Shown here in pieces: positions 16,033 through 54,650 of a stretch of 64,000 nucleotides of DNA. Numbering within the stretch: the stretch's first letter is position 1; every line of letters begins with the position of its first letter. A model generated the notes under the pieces. That model worked only from the letters and a program-made list of their open reading frames with translations. It made no database searches and had not been told where the DNA came from. Source of the stretch: Candidatus Methylacidiphilales bacterium. Its GTDB lineage: Bacteria > Verrucomicrobiota > Verrucomicrobiia > Methylacidiphilales > CAZTYG01. Location of the stretch: positions 64,467-128,466 of the forward strand of contig JANRJG010000041.1 of NCBI GenBank assembly GCA_033875315.1. The letters are read 5' to 3'. The position numbers were made by a program, and so were the translations under genes.

Positions 16033-16389
16033 CTAATCACGCAAATGCTTGGTAAATGCGGCTATCCGCTTCGACAGTTTTTCAGAAAGCTCGCGCAATT
16101 CCACCGTTTTGCTTTCGGACAATACCCGTATGTCCTCTGCTGCGTAAGTCATGCTGCGCACCTCCCCACAGGACCCCTTGGCCATATCCAGAAAATGGGC
16201 AAAATCCCGAGAAGTGTGCCGCTCGAATCCTTCGGCGATGTTGTTCATGACGGAGAGGGCCGCCCTCCGCATCTGATCGCGAAAAGAAAAATCCCTGCAA
16301 GATTCCAATGCCACATACGCTTGGAAATGAAGTTGTCGCGCTTCCTGCCAAATTTCCAAGTCTTCAAAACGCTGGGCAAACCGCTTCAT
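16033..16389 (-). CDS. four-helix-bundle protein (23S rRNA intervening-sequence protein / Avd-like family)
   Basis: FEDLEIWQEARQL..., RRAALSVMNNIAEGFER, FLDMAKGSCGEVRS: the motifs of this family. Confidence 0.85.
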   Translation of the reverse strand: MKRFAQRFEDLEIWQEARQLHFQAYVALESCRDFSFRDQMRRAALSVMNNIAEGFERHTSRDFAHFLDMAKGSCGEVRSMTYAAEDIRVLSESKTVELRELSEKLSKRIAAFTKHLRD

Positions 16390-49418: not shown

Positions 49419-49777
49419 CAAAGACTTGATGTCCAGATGAATCACTCTGCCATGGTATCCAAGCCCGGGATCGCCTTCAATACTTATTATTGCTAAGTTA
49501 GGTGTCTCTTTCCCCCATTCTTTTAGAGAAACAAGCAACCAGGACCAAGACATGCCGGCCCCTGATGTCCCTCACGAGGAGACCCAAGAGAACTTGCGTC
49601 AAAAGAACCGTTCTCACACATGTCCAACTGCGCGTTCCCGCCTCGTTTCGCTCGAGGTGTAAACGCACACCAATCAACCAGACAGGGCGGATCAATCAAA
49701 CAAAGAAAAAACACGAGAGCCCCATTGCAGAAGCGTCCGTGGCCATCCCGCCCTACGTCCCCGCATTTGGATTAGAA

Positions 49778-51775
49778 TCAACCGCTCACTTGTCGCTCTG
49801 TACCAACAAAACCCCTGATCACCCTCACCATGCGGTCGATCTGGGCCGGGGTCAGGCCGGGATAGACTCCGATGAAGATCGCCTCATTCATGATTCTATC
49901 CGCACCCGGGAGAAGGCTTGTTGCTCCTTGTTTGCCCCGGCTTCCCCCGACGACGCGGAACGCGTCCGGGTTGTCATGACGCAACTGGACGAATGCCGGC
50001 TGGCGGACGAGGTTGCCACCAAAGAGCATGCGGTTGCCGATCTTGTGTTCGTCCAAATGCCGGGCCAGATCTGTGCGGGAAAAAGGAGCCCCGGGCTTCA
50101 CCAGCATCATGAAGCCGAACCAGGACGGACTGCAGCGCAGCCCGTGTTCATGTGACATGTCTGAGTTTAAGGGAGAAAGACCGTCGGATTTCCATCCGAA
50201 TGAGGCCTCCTGCCATTCGTCTTTTCTTGAACTTAAACCTTCAACTTCAACTCCCAACCATGCGGATGCATGGGTGGGCAGGGCAAACTCCAGCACATCC
50301 TCCAGCCCGGCCAATCCCCGGCGCAACAATTCCCAGTTGCGTTTGCGGGCCTCGATGAAGGCGGGCATCTTCTTCAATTGGGCCCGGCCGATGGCCGCCT
50401 GCGGATCGAGCGGCTTCAGGTTGTAGCCGATGTGGCTGTAGATGTATTTGTGGTCGTAGCCCTCGGGCAGTTCACCCAGTTGCCAGCCGAACCGTTTCCG
50501 GCAGGTGTTATCGACCCCGCTGGCGCACCAGCAATCCCGGCCCCAGTCCCGGAAGCTCTCCACCAGCACCTTGAGCTTCATGTCCTTGACGATGTTGATG
50601 GCCCCACCCTCGCCCATGGTCAGGTGGTGCGGCGGGTAGAAGGACTGTGTGCTGAGGTCACCGAAAGTGCCGGTGTAGGCGGTCAAAATCCCGTCCACGA
50701 TACGGGGGATTTTGAGTGCCTGGTTCTGTGTGTTTGATTCTGGGTTGGCTCTCGCGCGCTGGAGAAGATGCTGCAATCCCAAGGATTCGGCCAACGCGAC
50801 GGGAAGCGAATATGTGCAACCCAGGGCATCACAATTGTCCTCGATCAGCCAGAGGTCGTGTTTTTTGCAGAAGGCCAGCACGGTGGCCAGATCGAAGGGG
50901 TTGCCCAGGGCGTGGGCCATCATGACGGCCTTGGTTTTCCCGGGGACAAAGGCTTCCTCCAAGCGGGAGAGATCGGCGTTGCCGGTCGTGGGGTCATTGT
51001 CGAGGAAAACGGGCACCGCGCCATTTTGCAGGATCGGGGCCACGGTGGTGGGGAATCCGGCCGCGCAGGTGATGATTTCGTCGCTGGGACGGATGCGTTT
51101 CTCCGGTGGCAGTTTGTGGCTGGTCAGGGCGGTGAAGGCCAGCAGGTTGGCCGAAGAGCCGGAATTGGTCAGGATACAGCGGCGCACCCCGAGGAATTCC
51201 GCCAGTTCGGATTCAAAAGCCTCACCCTCCTTGCCCAGGGTGAGCCAAAAATCGAGGGTGGCGGAAACCGCCGCCGTCACTTCGTCTTCATCAAAGACAC
51301 GACCGGCGTAGGGAATGGCTTCCGGCTTCAAGTTTCCGGCTTCAAGTTTCCGGTGGGTTTCAGCCTCCGTTTCCAAGCGGACCTCATCATCCCCGGGCCT
51401 TTGCGCCAAGTGGGTCAGGCGGGAGAAGGAACGGGAATTGGACAAGGCCAAGGCTTTGTGACAATCCTTCAAACGAGAGGGCTTCAGTGACGCGCCCCAA
51501 TCCCGAAGCTCGGATTCATGAACGGTCAGAAAGCGGTCTGTGCGGATATAACTCGTCTTCAGCAAACGACCGCTGGCCAGATCTTCCTGGGTAAAGGCGA
51601 TCGCATGAGGATAGTGCGGCGCACCGGTGACTTTGAGAAGAGTGACGTCACCCTGTTTATCAGCGCCCGTGATCGCCAATGCAGGCCTGCTTTTCGAAGA
51701 AAAGGATGCCGACCCCTTGCGGTCGGAATCCGTATGTGGCCAGTCAAGGTAGTAAAAGCGGCCGGGTTGGATCAT
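49778..51775 (-). CDS. rfbH: RfbH/DdhC-type CDP-6-deoxy-4-hexulose 3-dehydrase with an N-terminal PemK/MazF-like domain fused in frame
   Basis: Residues ~150-665 match RfbH-family motifs from memory: YAGRVFDEDEV, NSGSSANLLA, AAGFPTTVAP, SFYPPHHLTMGEGG (His replaces the PLP Lys), DWGRDCWCASGVDNTCRKRFG (Cys cluster), GYDHKYIYSHIGYNLKP, SWFGF, RMLFGGNL. Residues 1-~110 look like a PemK/MazF toxin: GRFYYLDW, SKSRPALAIT, LLKTSYIRTDRFLTV. Confidence 0.8.
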   Translation of the reverse strand: MIQPGRFYYLDWPHTDSDRKGSASFSSKSRPALAITGADKQGDVTLLKVTGAPHYPHAIAFTQEDLASGRLLKTSYIRTDRFLTVHESELRDWGASLKPSRLKDCHKALALSNSRSFSRLTHLAQRPGDDEVRLETEAETHRKLEAGNLKPEAIPYAGRVFDEDEVTAAVSATLDFWLTLGKEGEAFESELAEFLGVRRCILTNSGSSANLLAFTALTSHKLPPEKRIRPSDEIITCAAGFPTTVAPILQNGAVPVFLDNDPTTGNADLSRLEEAFVPGKTKAVMMAHALGNPFDLATVLAFCKKHDLWLIEDNCDALGCTYSLPVALAESLGLQHLLQRARANPESNTQNQALKIPRIVDGILTAYTGTFGDLSTQSFYPPHHLTMGEGGAINIVKDMKLKVLVESFRDWGRDCWCASGVDNTCRKRFGWQLGELPEGYDHKYIYSHIGYNLKPLDPQAAIGRAQLKKMPAFIEARKRNWELLRRGLAGLEDVLEFALPTHASAWLGVEVEGLSSRKDEWQEASFGWKSDGLSPLNSDMSHEHGLRCSPSWFGFMMLVKPGAPFSRTDLARHLDEHKIGNRMLFGGNLVRQPAFVQLRHDNPDAFRVVGGSRGKQGATSLLPGADRIMNEAIFIGVYPGLTPAQIDRMVRVIRGFVGTERQVSG
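50226..50253. repeat. solo copy of the ~28-nt cassette-arm element, in frame inside rfbH
   Basis: cttgaacttaaaccttcaacttcaactc. Its reverse complement shares the first 12 nt (gagttgaagttg) and an 8-nt block (tttaagtt) with 53187-53216. About 20 of 26 positions match 53594-53619 in the same orientation. Confidence 0.65.
51322..51349. repeat. perfect 14-nt tandem duplication (ccggcttcaagttt x2) inside the PemK-RfbH linker
   Basis: Read directly from the sequence. Encodes ...KLEAGNLKPEA... Confidence 0.8.
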
Positions 51776-51987
51776 TTGCCGGGGATTTCAAAGAGTTCTT
51801 CCGCAGATTCATCTTCATCCCCTCGGATGAAGGAAGGCATTTGCAGGTCCAGCATCGCTTTTCGTTCGAGCGAGATACTCAGAAGCTCATTTTCGGTATA
51901 AAGTTCTAAGTGTGCCCCCTCGGGAATGGGTTCGCTCGAGTCTATGACCCGCAACACGCCACCCTCCTTGACGACAGTGATACTCAT
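51772..51987 (-). CDS. small antitoxin-like protein (DUF104/AF2212-like N-terminus)
   Basis: 71 aa MSITVVKEGGVLRVIDSSEPIPEGAHLEL... with an acidic tail. ATGA overlaps at both ends: with the rfbG stop (51984-51987) and the toxin-domain start (51772-51775). The track's longer 145-aa version overlaps rfbG. Confidence 0.5.
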   Translation of the reverse strand: MSITVVKEGGVLRVIDSSEPIPEGAHLELYTENELLSISLERKAMLDLQMPSFIRGDEDESAEELFEIPGK

Positions 51988-53225
51988 AATGGTGCATGAT
52001 ACTCCCTGATCTGTCTCCGGGTCAATTCTCCCGGATTGCCCCCCTCGTGAACTCCACGATACCACGCCACGGTTTGTGACAACGTGGTGGCAAAATCCCA
52101 TCGCGGTGACCAGCCCAACAGATGATGGGCCTTGTCCCAGACGAGATTGAGCTTCCCGGCCTCGTGGGGGGCGTTCGGGTCGGAGCGGTCCTCCCAGGTG
52201 CCTGGCCAATGTTTGAGTATTTCCTCGACCAGCTCTTCGACCGTCTTGTTGGATTCCAGATGGGGACCGAAGTTGAAGGCGGCGCAGAGCTCTGCCGTTG
52301 AAGGGTTGAAGGGTTGAGAGGTCGAGGGGATTCCACCTTTAAATCCTTCAACGCCGCCTGCGGCGGCATTCACCCCATCAACACTTGCGGCGAGACGAGC
52401 CGCAAGGAGGAGATAACCGGACAGAGGCTCCAACACGTGCTGCCAGGGACGGGTGGAGATTTTGTTGCGCACGGGCACCGGATGTCCGGAAGCAAGGGCG
52501 CGGATGGCGTCGGGCACAATACGGTCCATAGCCCAATCCCCGCCCCCGATGACATTGCCCGCCCGGGCCGAGGCAACGAAGCACGATGCACGAAGCCCTT
52601 CATCTTCGAAAAACGAATTCCGCCAGGAAGCAATGGCGATCTCCGCCGCGCCTTTGCTCGAACTGTAGGGATCGTGGCCGCCGAGCGGATCCACTTCCCG
52701 GTAGCCGTGCAACCACTCACGGTTTTCGTACACTTTGTCGGTGGTGATGAGGACCGCGACGGTCGTCACCTTGCTCAAGTTTGAGTCGGAAGTTGAAACT
52801 CCCCTTAAACTTGCGGCTTTGGCTTCTTGAAGTGCCCTCAGCGCTTCAAGAACATGGATGGTGCCCATGACGTTGGTTTCCCAGGTCTCCACCGGGGTGC
52901 TGTAGGACAAGCGGACCAAGGGTTGGGCGGCCAGGTGGAAGACGAAGTCGGGCGAAATTTCCAATACGGTCTTTTTCACCGAAGCCCCGTCGCGGATGTC
53001 ACCTCGGCGGTCATTCATTCGGGAGGCGAGTCCCAGTTGATCGAAGAGACAGGGCGAGGACACGGGCTCCGGCAGGCTGAAGCCATGGACCTTGGCCCCG
53101 AGGGAGAGGAGCCACTCACAGAGCCAGGCCCCTTTGAATCCGGTGTGGCCGGTCACGAAAACGTTCTTTCCAAGGAACGTTTTCGTGAGTTGAAGTTGTG
53201 AATTTAAGTTTAAGAGGGAACTCAT
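51984..53225 (-). CDS. rfbG: CDP-glucose 4,6-dehydratase
   Basis: VFVTGHTGFKGAWL, FHLAAQPLVRLSY, DKVYENREW, DPYSSSKGAAE, RAGNVIGGGDW, RPWQHVLEPLSGY. Carries in-frame inserts (see findings). Confidence 0.9.
   Translation of the reverse strand: MSSLLNLNSQLQLTKTFLGKNVFVTGHTGFKGAWLCEWLLSLGAKVHGFSLPEPVSSPCLFDQLGLASRMNDRRGDIRDGASVKKTVLEISPDFVFHLAAQPLVRLSYSTPVETWETNVMGTIHVLEALRALQEAKAASLRGVSTSDSNLSKVTTVAVLITTDKVYENREWLHGYREVDPLGGHDPYSSSKGAAEIAIASWRNSFFEDEGLRASCFVASARAGNVIGGGDWAMDRIVPDAIRALASGHPVPVRNKISTRPWQHVLEPLSGYLLLAARLAASVDGVNAAAGGVEGFKGGIPSTSQPFNPSTAELCAAFNFGPHLESNKTVEELVEEILKHWPGTWEDRSDPNAPHEAGKLNLVWDKAHHLLGWSPRWDFATTLSQTVAWYRGVHEGGNPGELTRRQIREYHAPL
52297..52328. repeat. tandem octamer array (gttgaagg x2, gttgagag, gtcgaggg) inside rfbG
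   Basis: Four consecutive 8-nt units. A further gttgaagg lies at 52272-52279 and an inverted copy ccttcaac at 52345-52352. Confidence 0.75.
52824..52852. other. perfect 9-bp hairpin (ttcttgaag / cttcaagaa, 11-nt loop) inside rfbG; neighbouring 9/10 hairpin 52776-52785 / 52804-52813
   Basis: Read directly. Both lie in the segment encoding the rfbG insert ...QEAKAASLRGVSTSDSNLSKVTT... Confidence 0.75.
53187..53216. repeat. inverted-repeat arm (stop-codon side) of four-helix-bundle cassette 2; also encodes the rfbG N-terminal extension
   Basis: gagttgaagttgtgaatttaagtttaagag. The reverse complement of 53594-53619 is cttgaagttgtaattttaagttagag. Matched blocks of 10+5+5+4 nt separated by small bulges. 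Confidence 0.7.
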
Positions 53226-53584
53226 TTTAAGACATCCGGGGTTTTCAGGCTTCTGGTAAACGCATAAAGTATGTGCGAAAAATCCGCACGTTCACGCAGA
53301 TAAGTTTCCAACTCGGCACCGGTTGCGACCGCCAACTCCCAGGCAATCATCAACTGCGATCTAAGTTCACCAAGTGGGCCCCGGGCGATGCCCACAAAAC
53401 GGGCAAATTCCGCAGGAAAGTTTCGTTCCGCCCGTTCTGCGATTTTGGAGGGCACACTGATGGCGGTTCGTAAAATCCGGCCTCGTAGTGCAAAGAAACG
53501 GCAATCAATGAACACACGACAAACGTAGACGGTCGGTTTGTGGGCTCTTTCCCAAATTTCCAGATCCTCAAAGCCTCTGCTCAT
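53222..53584 (-). CDS. four-helix-bundle protein (23S rRNA IVS protein / Avd-like family), divergent copy
   Basis: FEDLEIWERAHK..., RTAISVPSKIAERAER, IARGPLGELRSQL. ATGA overlap with the rfbG start. Confidence 0.75.
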   Translation of the reverse strand: MSRGFEDLEIWERAHKPTVYVCRVFIDCRFFALRGRILRTAISVPSKIAERAERNFPAEFARFVGIARGPLGELRSQLMIAWELAVATGAELETYLRERADFSHILYAFTRSLKTPDVLK

Positions 53585-53593
53585 GACAATCCG

Positions 53594-53619
53594 CTCTAAC
53601 TTAAAATTACAACTTCAAG
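53594..53619. repeat. inverted-repeat arm (start-codon side) of four-helix-bundle cassette 2
   Basis: ctctaacttaaaattacaacttcaag, 9 nt upstream of the ATG at 53584. Confidence 0.7.
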
Positions 53620-53635
53620 ACGCGACAGAGCCGCG

Positions 53636-54403
53636 TCACCAAACCTTCCAAGGCGCTTTCCCGCTGTTCCAAAGTTCTTCAAGGTGATTCTTATCCCGGA
53701 GGGTATCCATCGGCTGCCAGAATCCTTCGTGCTTGAAGGCCCTCATCTGGCCTTCGGCGGCCAATCGCTCCATGGGCTCCTTTTCCCAAAGCGTTCCATC
53801 ACCCTCCACATGCCCGAGAACCGAGGGATCGAGGACAAAAAAACCACCGTTGATCCAGGAGCCGTCTCCCTTGGGTTTCTCTTGGAAGGCAACCATTTCG
53901 TCCCCGTCTAGTTGCAGCGCACCGAATCTCCCGCTGGGCTGCACGGCGGTCAAAGTGGCCTTTTTCCCATGGGCCTTGTGGAAGGCGATAAGCGCCTTGA
54001 TGTCAACATCCCCCACACCATCTCCATAGGTCATACAGAAGGCACCGTCCTGCACATAAGGAGCGATCCGCTTCAGCCGCCCACCGGTCATCGTGTCTTC
54101 ACCCGTGTCGACGATGGTGACCCGCCAAGGCTCGGTGCGTTTTTCATGTACTTCCATTTTATTGTCCCGCATGTCAAAGGTTACATCGGATTGGTGGAGA
54201 AAATAATTGGCGAAATATTCTTTGATCAGGTATCCCCGGTAACCCGCGCAAATGACAAAGTCATGGATGCCGTGGGCCGAGTAAATCTTCATGATGTGCC
54301 AAAGGATGGGATAATTCCCGATCTGGACCATGGGCTTGGGCTTGAGGGAGGTTTCTTCGCTGAGTCGGGTGCCCAAACCTCCGGCCAAAAGAACTGCTTT
54401 CAT
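53636..54403 (-). CDS. rfbF: glucose-1-phosphate cytidylyltransferase
   Basis: MKAVLLAGGLGTRLSEETSLKPKPMVQIGNYPILWHIMKIYSAHGIHDFVICAGYRGYLIKEYFANY is nearly canonical RfbF. Confidence 0.92.
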   Translation of the reverse strand: MKAVLLAGGLGTRLSEETSLKPKPMVQIGNYPILWHIMKIYSAHGIHDFVICAGYRGYLIKEYFANYFLHQSDVTFDMRDNKMEVHEKRTEPWRVTIVDTGEDTMTGGRLKRIAPYVQDGAFCMTYGDGVGDVDIKALIAFHKAHGKKATLTAVQPSGRFGALQLDGDEMVAFQEKPKGDGSWINGGFFVLDPSVLGHVEGDGTLWEKEPMERLAAEGQMRAFKHEGFWQPMDTLRDKNHLEELWNSGKAPWKVW

Positions 54404-54650
54404 ATCTACAACCTATTGAAGAAAGCGAAATCTGGAAACCGGAAACTTAATGGCCCGCTCCGGGCCATACGTCGACCCGGTCCAGAGCCGCTTCGGAGGG
54501 GATTCGCCAGCTCATTGGTGAAGTCACGGCACGCCGTCCGGGCGATTCTTAACGGGATGCCCGGGGACCATGCGTTTTCGTTCATCAGCCACTTCCACCC
54601 TGTCGGCTTCGGGGTTGTCATTCCTTGGAAACCCCTATTAGTCTAAGCAG

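Follow-up and report, generated by a model that had tools for sequence, protein, structure and literature searches.

Several kinds of small repeat are known that pair with themselves and occur within or beside bacterial genes. Rickettsia palindromic elements (RPEs) are palindromic repeats of about 100-150 bp that are often inserted in frame into unrelated housekeeping genes, where they are translated and remain compatible with the fold of the host protein (PMC10969869). Intervening sequences of 23S rRNA, found in Coxiella, Leptospira and others, sit in helix 45 and carry an S23p/PF05635 open reading frame enclosed by terminal inverted repeats that form a long stem; in Coxiella this stem is 28 bp long, the element also has tandem heptamers (GACAGAT) whose copy number varies between strains, and it is excised by RNase III (PMC4990558). 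In Geobacter metallireducens, multicopy elements made of four tandem hepta- or octanucleotide repeats, paired on opposite strands at variable distance, lie between genes (for example between proB and proA) and within genes, and were interpreted as binding sites for global regulators or as regulatory RNAs (Aklujkar et al. 2009, PMC2700814). REP/BIME/REPIN elements and bacterial MITEs are short, non-autonomous, palindromic and multicopy, while simple-sequence contingency loci place a non-triplet repeat unit inside a glycan-synthesis gene. Here, we analyzed a 64,000-nucleotide window from a Candidatus Methylacidiphilales bacterium (contig JANRJG010000041.1 of assembly GCA_033875315.1, a 42-contig draft of 3.15 Mb), in which the sugar-dehydratase gene rfbG appears to carry two worn, translated copies of a small hairpin repeat that resemble the stems around a small neighbouring gene.

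Two in-frame inserts in rfbG

The rfbG open reading frame (51984-53225, minus strand) encodes 413 aa, compared with 357-359 aa for characterised enzymes. It is a bona fide CDP-glucose 4,6-dehydratase: it matches TIGR02622 at 446.6 bits against a cut-off of 278.45, covering profile positions 2-351 of 352, and aligns to 1rkx with E = 6e-96. The catalytic core and the motifs GHTGFKG, TTDKVY, YSSSK and RPWQHVLEP are intact, and the AlphaFold model superposes on 1rkx and 1wvg at target-normalised TM-scores of 0.88-0.90 (0.90 for 1rkx). A preliminary description, made from the sequence alone, had proposed that two segments of this gene are in-frame repeat/hairpin insertions at points where characterised dehydratases have short connections. 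We could confirm this observation, as every repeat and stem that it listed is present in the sequence.

To place the inserts, we aligned the protein to the solved Yersinia and Salmonella enzymes (1rkx and 1wvg), which have no residues at either point. Insert A (52770-52826, minus strand, E134-K152) corresponds to a 19-residue gap, and its stem is CAAGTTTAAG / CTCAAACTTG (52776-52813), in which 52776-52785 and 52804-52813 pair at 9 of 10 positions. It resembles a decayed TTTAAG/TTCAAC-type hairpin read in frame; it meets the description of tandem 7-8-nt arms only weakly in this genome, but can be aligned with the insert at the same site in one relative (L016), and relatives carry clear tandem-unit hairpins at this site (for example L119, with a score of 13). 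At its edge lies a junction hairpin (52824-52852, minus strand), in which 52824-52835 and 52841-52852 pair at 11 of 12 positions, including the perfect 9-bp stem described previously; however, it is made largely of native helix codons (VLEALRALQE), with the native codons VLEAL pairing with an inverted copy that encodes ALQE.

Insert C (52296-52382, minus strand, V282-T310, ~26-29 aa) corresponds to a stretch, at about residues 285-310, that does not align with either structure, and resembles a decayed GTTGAAGG-type hairpin read in frame. On the coding strand it consists of a degenerate arm copy GTTGATGGGGTGAATG (52367-52382), the GC palindrome GCCGCCGCAGGCGGC (52353-52367), the 5' arm GTTGAAGGATTTAAAGGTGGA (52332-52352, read as VEGFKGG) and the 3' arm CCCTCGACCTCTCAACCCTTCAACCCTTCAAC (52296-52327, read as PSTSQPFNPST). 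On the plus strand, GTTGAAGG lies at 52272, 52297 and 52305, and CCTTCAAC at 52345-52352. Tandem Repeats Finder gives 2.6 exact octamers at 52297-52317, and 2 degenerate units extend the run to 52328; one strand has 4 units and the other 2-3 degenerate ones. The arms form a 22-nt inverted repeat (52296-52317 / 52332-52353) that is 82% complementary with a 14-nt loop. In the closest relative (L118), GTTGAAGGGTTGAA / TTCAACCCATCAAC occupy the same site. The octamer at 52272-52279, which had been counted as a solo member of the repeat, is not part of the insert but constitutes the codons GC|C TTC AAC of the invariant A-F-N of the FNFGP motif.

We compared insert lengths across 87 distinct orthologues, most of which are at basal length at both sites: site A has a median of 14 residues where this protein has 33, and site C a median of 18 where it has 41. 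A conserved ancestral loop was therefore rejected; both segments are lineage-specific in-frame insertions. The inserts fall in low-confidence surface segments of an otherwise intact predicted fold, with a pLDDT of about 50-61 over residues 291-309. The earlier interpretation, namely insertions that the enzyme probably tolerates and that are not ordinary codon-repeat expansions, is thus supported, and the 8-nt period does argue against triplet expansion. The proposal that both segments share one repeat vocabulary is weak in this genome, as they share only TTGAAG / TTTAAG / TTCAAC words and one 17-of-23 match, and the adjacent cassette that provides the context had not been seen. On their own, the two segments fold only modestly better than shuffled sequences (z = -1.87 and -1.90), and their significance comes from comparison with other loci rather than from folding energy.

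PF05635 cassettes and relatives of the inserts

Directly upstream of rfbG, a cassette (53183-53625) occupies the spacer behind the rfbF-like glucose-1-phosphate cytidylyltransferase gene, the upstream gene of the operon (53636-54403, minus strand, PF00483). It contains a gene of 120 aa (53222-53584, minus strand) that belongs to PF05635 (23S rRNA intervening-sequence protein, Avd-like four-helix bundle; 63.4 bits against a cut-off of 33.8 for 53225-53584), and whose stop codon overlaps the rfbG start codon (ATGA). The gene is enclosed by a 35-nt inverted repeat that is 77% complementary, and whose arms pair in the minimum-free-energy fold of the whole cassette: the 5' arm TCGCGTCTTGAAGTTGTAATTTTAAGTTAGAGCGG (53591-53625, minus strand) and the 3' arm (53183-53217, minus strand), which is translated as the RfbG N-terminal extension (S)LLNLNSQLQLT. 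Over rfbG codons 13-24 (53153-53188, minus strand) lies a perfect 14-bp palindrome (TCACGAAAACGTTC / GAACGTTTTCGTGA; z = -4.26), the 3' arm of which is the native K-N-V-F-V-T coding sequence. Strong versions of this palindrome were found only in loci that carry a cassette, and in six relatives 97.6% of positions pair and 5 of 14 pairs show compensatory changes, a level reached by 0 of 500 shuffles. The neighbouring rfbH-like dehydrase gene also has an insert of about 48 aa (50126-50290, minus strand, residues 500-547), seen as a gap against 3bcx, which contains GTTGAAGTTGAAGGTTTAAGTTCAAG (about 50230-50250) in the same repeat dialect.

We next asked whether such hairpins occur elsewhere in the genome. 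All 7 PF05635 genes are flanked by inverted arms made of tandem 7-8-mers, with a different unit for each cassette, and 5 of the 7 exceed all 400 random controls. A strict scan for 7-8-nt arrays (14 of 16 matches) found only 90 arrays, 3 of them paired, the same number as in the mirror-repeat control; this was too strict for decayed copies, and we therefore scanned for hairpins directly, which gave 125 hairpins against 46 mirror controls. Gene-less hairpins with the same units as particular cassettes exist elsewhere in the genome: for example, the arm at position 52874 of contig C11 differs by one base from the arm of the cassette on contig C30, and at least 6 GAGAACGAG-type hairpins match the cassette on contig C15. 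In contrast, BLAST of each 111-nt rfbG segment against the genome found no second copy, so that the segments are not a dispersed repeat in this genome, (GTTGAAGG)2 occurs exactly once, and a regular-expression search for three or more TT[GTC]AAG units found 3 places, one of them in rfbH. The GTTGAAGG dialect is thus found only in this operon, and nothing shows it to be active here, while other dialects of this genome are multicopy. An Rfam search of 49700-54500 gave no meaningful match.

Among relatives, four sites of RfbG hold such inserts, the whole set turns over quickly, and sister RfbGs differ in insert presence, length and content (for example 33 against 0 at site A, and 65 against -1 at site C). 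Relatives also have cassettes in the rfbF-rfbG spacer whose 3' arm is the RfbG N-terminus, read as MPLQPFN..., MSLQPFNFS... or MNLNSQ.... In the unbiased set of orthologues, PF05635 lies next to rfbG in 3 of 8 loci with at least 12 aa of inserts and in 0 of 63 without (Fisher p = 0.001), although these counts come from related sequences and one of the 3 positive loci is the query locus itself. Inserts at different sites of one gene share 8-mers 3.1 times on average, against 1.0-1.2 between loci (permutation p = 0.0005); in other words, sites within one gene share a genome-specific repeat dialect. The present RfbG and its sister in L118 carry different cassette lineages, and in L118 site A shares GCACCAGG and CCAAGCAC with its first cassette, while site C matches its second. 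Cassette protein lineage tracks arm dialect, in that group 1 (61-70% identical) has GTTGAAGG arms and group 2 (44-57% identical) has TTAAAC arms, but this covariation could be plain co-inheritance. Finally, the exact 21-mer of 2.6 GTTGAAGG units was found in at least 120 loci of many phyla, where about 0.3 would be expected by chance. Of these, 22 are short-loop hairpins, 4 lie inside long ORFs and are read as VEGLKG..LQPFNPST, and one (L194) has PF05635 between the arms; about 80% of the cross-phylum arrays have no detected inverted partner.

Interpretation and alternative origins

We consider it most likely, with moderate confidence, that the two segments are old, partly decayed copies of a class of small palindromic repeat elements in which each arm is a short tandem array of 7-8-nt units, the dialects here being GTTGAAGG and TTTAAGG. 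In this view, the long form is a PF05635 gene bracketed by such arms, and the short form is the two arms with a small loop; one long form sits in the rfbF-rfbG spacer, and short forms sit at two surface points of RfbG and at one point of rfbH. Copies landing in a gene would survive only if they add a multiple of three bases and carry no stop codon. A perfect (GTTGAAGG)n arm has TGA in every frame within three units, so that the coding-strand 5' arm would have to mutate while the CCTTCAAC arm, open in all frames, stays nearly intact; the 5' arm here is indeed mutated at exactly those positions. The inserts would then be read as floppy loops (VEGFKGG...STSQPFNPST) that the enzyme tolerates. The analysis itself establishes the anatomy, the absence from characterised enzymes, the family relationship, the turnover among relatives and the association with the cassette. 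That the hairpins are tolerated, mobile or unstable passengers rather than functional parts, and that they spread by copying or insertion, we infer: no transposase or other known mobility gene was found, codon-by-codon alignment of filled and empty orthologues showed no target-site duplication at the insert borders, and the PF05635 protein is a candidate only because it is always linked and its lineage matches the arm dialect.

The alternative that survives best, though we consider it unlikely, is a local origin without any mobile element, in which native quasi-palindromes at permissive loops are expanded by replication slippage and strand or template switching, intragenic gene conversion homogenises the sites, and template-switch quasipalindrome correction keeps the arms complementary. 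Native sequence next to the inserts does resemble the arms, which leaves room for this reading: GCC TTC AAC of FNFGP lies 17 nt (about 6 codons) downstream of the CCTTCAAC array, CTTGAAG occurs in VLEAL, where CTT GAA GC pairs with ALQE, and the palindrome over codons 13-24 is an inverted copy of native codons. The absence of other GTTGAAGG copies in this genome and of target-site duplications is also in line with it. However, other relatives hold unrelated dialects (TTAAAC, GAACCAA, TTTCAGC) at the same sites although the native flanks are the same, dialects match the stems of adjacent cassettes, and the cassettes themselves are replaced between sister lineages. Because the same array occurs at unrelated loci in many phyla, we rejected an origin solely from the FNFGP codons.

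Less likely still, the hairpins could be functional RNA structures, such as RNase III or other processing sites or stability elements that set the relative expression of rfbF, rfbG and rfbH, by analogy with the intervening sequence of Coxiella. The predicted pairing of the cassette stem, the compensatory changes over codons 13-24 and the ATGA overlap, which is kept in at least 4 loci and suggests translational coupling through the stem, are in favour. The in-gene hairpins, on the other hand, are degraded, are lost cleanly in sister lineages, have their content replaced by unrelated sequence at the same site and have no Rfam match, and cutting inside the coding region, or in the stem that holds the start codon, would destroy the message. 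Two further readings are very doubtful. A phase-variation switch, in which gain or loss of one 8-nt unit would frameshift rfbG and switch a surface dideoxy-sugar on or off, fits the classical context of a non-triplet unit in a surface-polysaccharide gene, but such tracts usually have 5 or more perfect units; only 2.6 are present, the array is half of a hairpin rather than free-standing, and relatives show replacement and loss of whole inserts, not unit-number series. Selected peptide features, for example for oligomer contacts or localisation, could be suggested by the extension of the long interface helix by insert A (H111-142 in the model) and by the recurring motifs VE.LKG and QPFN.S, but these motifs are simply the translation of the two DNA arms and appear at four different sites and in unrelated proteins, lengths and sequences vary widely between sister proteins, and model confidence over the inserts is low. 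An assembly artefact is all but ruled out, as the frame is intact across both segments and homologous inserts occur at the same sites in independent assemblies from other samples.

A further, speculative possibility, which we consider doubtful but not excluded, is that PF05635 cassettes and ORF-less hairpins are the autonomous and non-autonomous forms of one unrecognised, transposase-less mobile system. Each lineage of the Avd-like pentameric protein would recognise its own 7-8-nt arm dialect, and the system would repeatedly colonise the same permissive slots, namely operon spacers, surface loops of enzymes and rRNA helices, with the perfect inverted copies of native flank at the junctions (codons 13-24 and the edge of insert A) as footprints of a hairpin-mediated insertion step. 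If the hairpins are one family with the cassettes, the function of a very widespread orphan protein family becomes testable, the question being whether the protein binds or moves its own repeat-built stems. A source of protein-length variation in uncultured bacteria would also be explained, with RfbG ranging from 344 to 505 aa in this clade purely through such inserts, and annotators would have a rule for recognising low-complexity loops such as VE.LKG...QPFN.S as translated DNA palindromes rather than as functional domains. For enzymology, the clade offers natural insertion-tolerance maps of an extended-SDR fold.

Comparison with described elements

The inserts share with RPEs their small palindromic form, in-frame placement, translation and compatibility with the host fold. 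RPEs, however, have a family consensus and an encoded peptide and are confined to Rickettsia and its relatives, whereas here the arms are tandem 7-8-nt units, the dialects differ between genomes, and the elements are about 50-90 bp and linked to PF05635 cassettes. The cassette has the layout of a 23S rRNA intervening sequence, but sits in an mRNA operon spacer rather than in a 23S rRNA helix and its 3' arm is translated, and the in-gene copies have no ORF. The Geobacter elements share the four tandem 7-8-nt units, the pairing on opposite strands and the positions between and within genes, and the consensus of one family, TWGTTGAY, shares the GTTGA core; no link to PF05635, to in-frame translation or to turnover was described for them. 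With REP/BIME/REPIN elements and MITEs the repeats share their short, non-autonomous, palindromic and multicopy nature, but no RAYT or transposase is present, there are no terminal inverted repeats with target-site duplication, and the arms are internally periodic. With simple-sequence contingency loci, finally, they share the non-triplet unit in a glycan-synthesis gene, but differ in having too few perfect units, an array that is half of a hairpin, and no copy-number series among relatives.

Confirmation and variability of the rfbG inserts

We first examined whether the repeats and hairpins described in rfbG are present, and whether they indeed represent additions to a characterised enzyme. 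The ORF at 51984-53225 (minus strand, 413 aa) matches the CDP-glucose 4,6-dehydratase equivalog TIGR02622 at 446.6 bits against a cut-off of 278, and matches the solved enzymes of Yersinia (1rkx, 357 aa) and Salmonella (1wvg, 359 aa) with E-values of 6e-96 and 5e-94, respectively. These alignments leave a 19-residue gap at E134-K152 (insert A) and an unaligned stretch at about residues 285-310 (insert C), while about 10 further residues are extra at the N-terminus. All repeats and stems listed in the preliminary description were found where it had placed them, and its observation therefore holds, although 3 details needed correcting. The octamer at 52272-52279, which had been counted as an upstream solo copy of the repeat, consists of the native codons of the invariant A-F-N of FNFGP; the stem at 52824-52852 is made mostly of the native helix codons VLEALRALQE; and, taken alone, the 2 segments fold only slightly better than shuffled sequences (z = -1.87 and -1.90). 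An AlphaFold model (pTM 0.87) keeps the fold, with a target-normalised TM-score of 0.90 to 1rkx, and in this model insert A is a helix extension plus a loop, while insert C is a low-confidence loop. The suggestion that these are insertions probably tolerated by the enzyme is thus supported, with tolerance being inferred from sequence and the predicted structure.

Conservation of the 2 segments across homologs had been named as an outcome that would contradict this interpretation, and the inserts proved not to be conserved loops. Homologs from Verrucomicrobiota metagenome-assembled genomes range from 344 to 505 aa, and an alignment of 37 of them shows 4 hypervariable places: the N-terminus, and the positions after VLEALR, after SFF and after LLAARLA. 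In 87 distinct orthologs taken without regard to inserts, the insert sites are at basal length in most sequences (site A has a median of 14 residues, compared to 33 in this protein). On a tree built from the core only, sister proteins differ greatly, as exemplified by the orthologs P0045 (33 additional residues at site A) and P0097 (none), by P0038 (65 additional residues at site C) and P0086 (one residue fewer), and by P0025 and P0041.

Composition of the inserts and the adjacent PF05635 cassette

The recurrent peptide motifs VE.LKG and QPFN.S are the translations of the 2 arms of a DNA palindrome, (GTTGAAGG)n ... (CCTTCAAC)n, and on the coding strand insert C reads GTTGAAGG ATTTAAAG GTGGAATC / CCCTCGACCTCTCAACCCTTCAACCCTTCAAC. 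A perfect G-rich arm contains TGA in every frame within 3 units (as the seventh codon of the frame beginning GTT GAA GGG, as the fourth codon in TTG AAG GGT TGA, and as the first codon in the remaining frame), while the other arm is open in all frames and reads cyclically as PSTLQPFN. A copy inside a gene therefore has to have a mutated 5' arm, which is what is seen, and this explains why the hairpin is only 82% paired. Clear hairpins of this kind are found at the same sites in relatives (site C of loci L118, L121 and L123, and site A of locus L119), while other relatives carry other unit "dialects": TTAAAC read as LNLN, GAACCAA read as EPRTKNQ, and TTTCAGC read as SAF. A related array was found in the neighboring rfbH-like CDP-4-keto-6-deoxyglucose 3-dehydrase (49778-51775, minus strand), which has 665 aa compared to 437 aa in 3bcx. 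This protein has 2 internal inserts, at residues 324-367 (with a 16-nt stem at 50677-50721) and at residues 500-547 (with the GTTGAAGTTGAAGGTTTAAGTTCAAG array at about 50230-50250), as well as an N-terminal extension of about 120-140 aa with a weak, below-cut-off match to PemK/MazF (20.4 bits). Between rfbG and rfbH, and overlapping both, lies a small ORF of about 72 aa without a family match (51772-51990, minus strand), and relatives have ORFs of 54-85 aa at the same place; together with the PemK-like N-terminus of rfbH, it could be an antitoxin-toxin remnant fused into the operon.

Between rfbF and rfbG lies a 120-aa PF05635 gene (63 bits), whose stop codon overlaps the rfbG start codon (ATGA). 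It is enclosed by a 35-nt inverted repeat of TTGAAGTT/TTTTAAGT-type units at 53591-53625 and 53183-53217, the arms of which pair in the minimum-free-energy fold of the cassette, and the 3' arm is translated as RfbG residues LLNLNSQLQLT. Ahead of the 5' arm, a short GC hairpin (GACGCGGCTCTGTCGCGTC; 53626-53640, minus strand) directly follows the rfbF stop codon, and similar hairpins sit at the same place in relatives (L016 and L119). In addition, a perfect 14-bp palindrome lies over rfbG codons 13-24 (53153-53188, minus strand); its 3' arm is the native K-N-V-F-V-T coding sequence and its 5' arm encodes LTKTF. Strong versions of this palindrome occur only in orthologs that carry a PF05635 cassette or hairpin upstream, and pairing is kept through 5 compensatory pair changes in 6 relatives; it could be an RNA structure or a footprint of insertion. 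All 7 PF05635 genes of this genome are enclosed by inverted tandem-unit arms, each cassette with its own unit, and 5 of the 7 beat all 400 random controls. A second of these genes lies in the window (16033-16389, minus strand; genome position C41:80526-80831), and is flanked by the inverted repeat-built arms AAGGTGTAAAAGTAG / CTACTTTTCCACCTT. Hairpins without an ORF but with the same units as particular cassettes occur elsewhere in the genome, mostly between genes. The strongest hairpins of the genome, however, are dominated by a separate and abundant REP-like palindrome family, CGGGAGGGCGAAGCTCCTGCTGAGCCG ... CGGCTCGGCAGGAGCCTCGCCCTCCCG, with dozens of copies (outside the window, for example at C9:42124-42200, C5:35225-35301 and C41:133313-133387).

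Association between cassettes and in-gene hairpins across genomes

To determine whether the cassettes and the in-gene hairpins are linked, we retrieved 10 insert-bearing relatives; here as elsewhere in the analysis, relatives are mostly short metagenome contigs. Of the 10, 8 have 1 to 3 PF05635 genes on record in the operon, 6 of them directly upstream of rfbG, and in 6 loci read at the DNA level the 3' arm of the cassette forms the RfbG N-terminus. In the orthologs taken without regard to inserts, PF05635 accompanies 3 of 8 insert-bearing loci and 0 of 63 loci without inserts (p = 0.001), although this count includes the query locus, and the sequences are related to one another. Inserts at different sites of one gene share 3.1 8-mers on average, compared to 1.0-1.2 between loci (permutation p = 0.0005); none of these statistics are phylogenetically corrected. 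The cassette proteins next to rfbG fall into 2 lineages that track the arm dialect, and this genome and L118, which carries its RfbG sister, have different lineages. L118 has 2 cassettes, each with an in-gene counterpart of its own dialect. The slots are therefore refilled, and the cassette in the spacer is replaced, on the time-scale of about 25% protein divergence.

The repeat is also broadly distributed. The exact 21-mer GTTGAAGGGTTGAAGGGTTGA occurs in at least 120 stretches of species-representative genomes, where about 0.3 would be expected by chance, from phyla including Bacteroidota, Verrucomicrobiota, Gemmatimonadota, Planctomycetota, Acidobacteriota, Chloroflexota and Proteobacteria. 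Of these 120 stretches, 25 have an inverted partner within 700 nt, nearly always with the G-rich arm first. We found 22 short-loop hairpin pairs, 4 of which lie inside long ORFs and read VEGLKG...LQPFNPST, and a single stretch (L194) has a PF05635 gene between the arms. Long pure (GTTGAAGG)n arrays of up to about 490 nt, with no detected inverted partner, also occur in many phyla among these stretches (L129-L248), and may be coding repeats, gene-end arrays or something else.

Possible origins and comparison with known elements

While the repeats, their arrangement and their variation among relatives were observed directly, their origin is inferred. We consider it most likely, with reasonable though not high confidence, that the 2 segments are tolerated, decayed, in-frame copies of this hairpin class that are related to the cassette stems, without a route of spread being implied. 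A purely local origin through slippage and template switching is less likely, but is kept alive by the resemblance of the native flanks to the arms and by the junction palindromes. A role in RNA processing is doubtful overall: it is possible for the cassette stem and for the stem over codons 13-24, but fits the degraded in-gene copies poorly. Phase variation, functional peptides and an artefact are unlikely.

In our searches of the literature, we found no paper that joins these observations. Rickettsia palindromic elements (RPEs) are the known case of palindromic repeats inserted in frame (PMC10969869). PF05635 is related to the Avd accessory protein of diversity-generating retroelements (PMC10053308). 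The paper describing the Geobacter metallireducens genome lists families of 4 tandem hepta- or octamers, paired on opposite strands, that are located between and within genes, and reads them as regulator binding sites (PMC2700814). Finally, the 23S intervening sequence of Coxiella is a PF05635 ORF inside a 28-bp stem, which carries tandem heptamers of variable number and is cut out by RNase III (PMC4990558).
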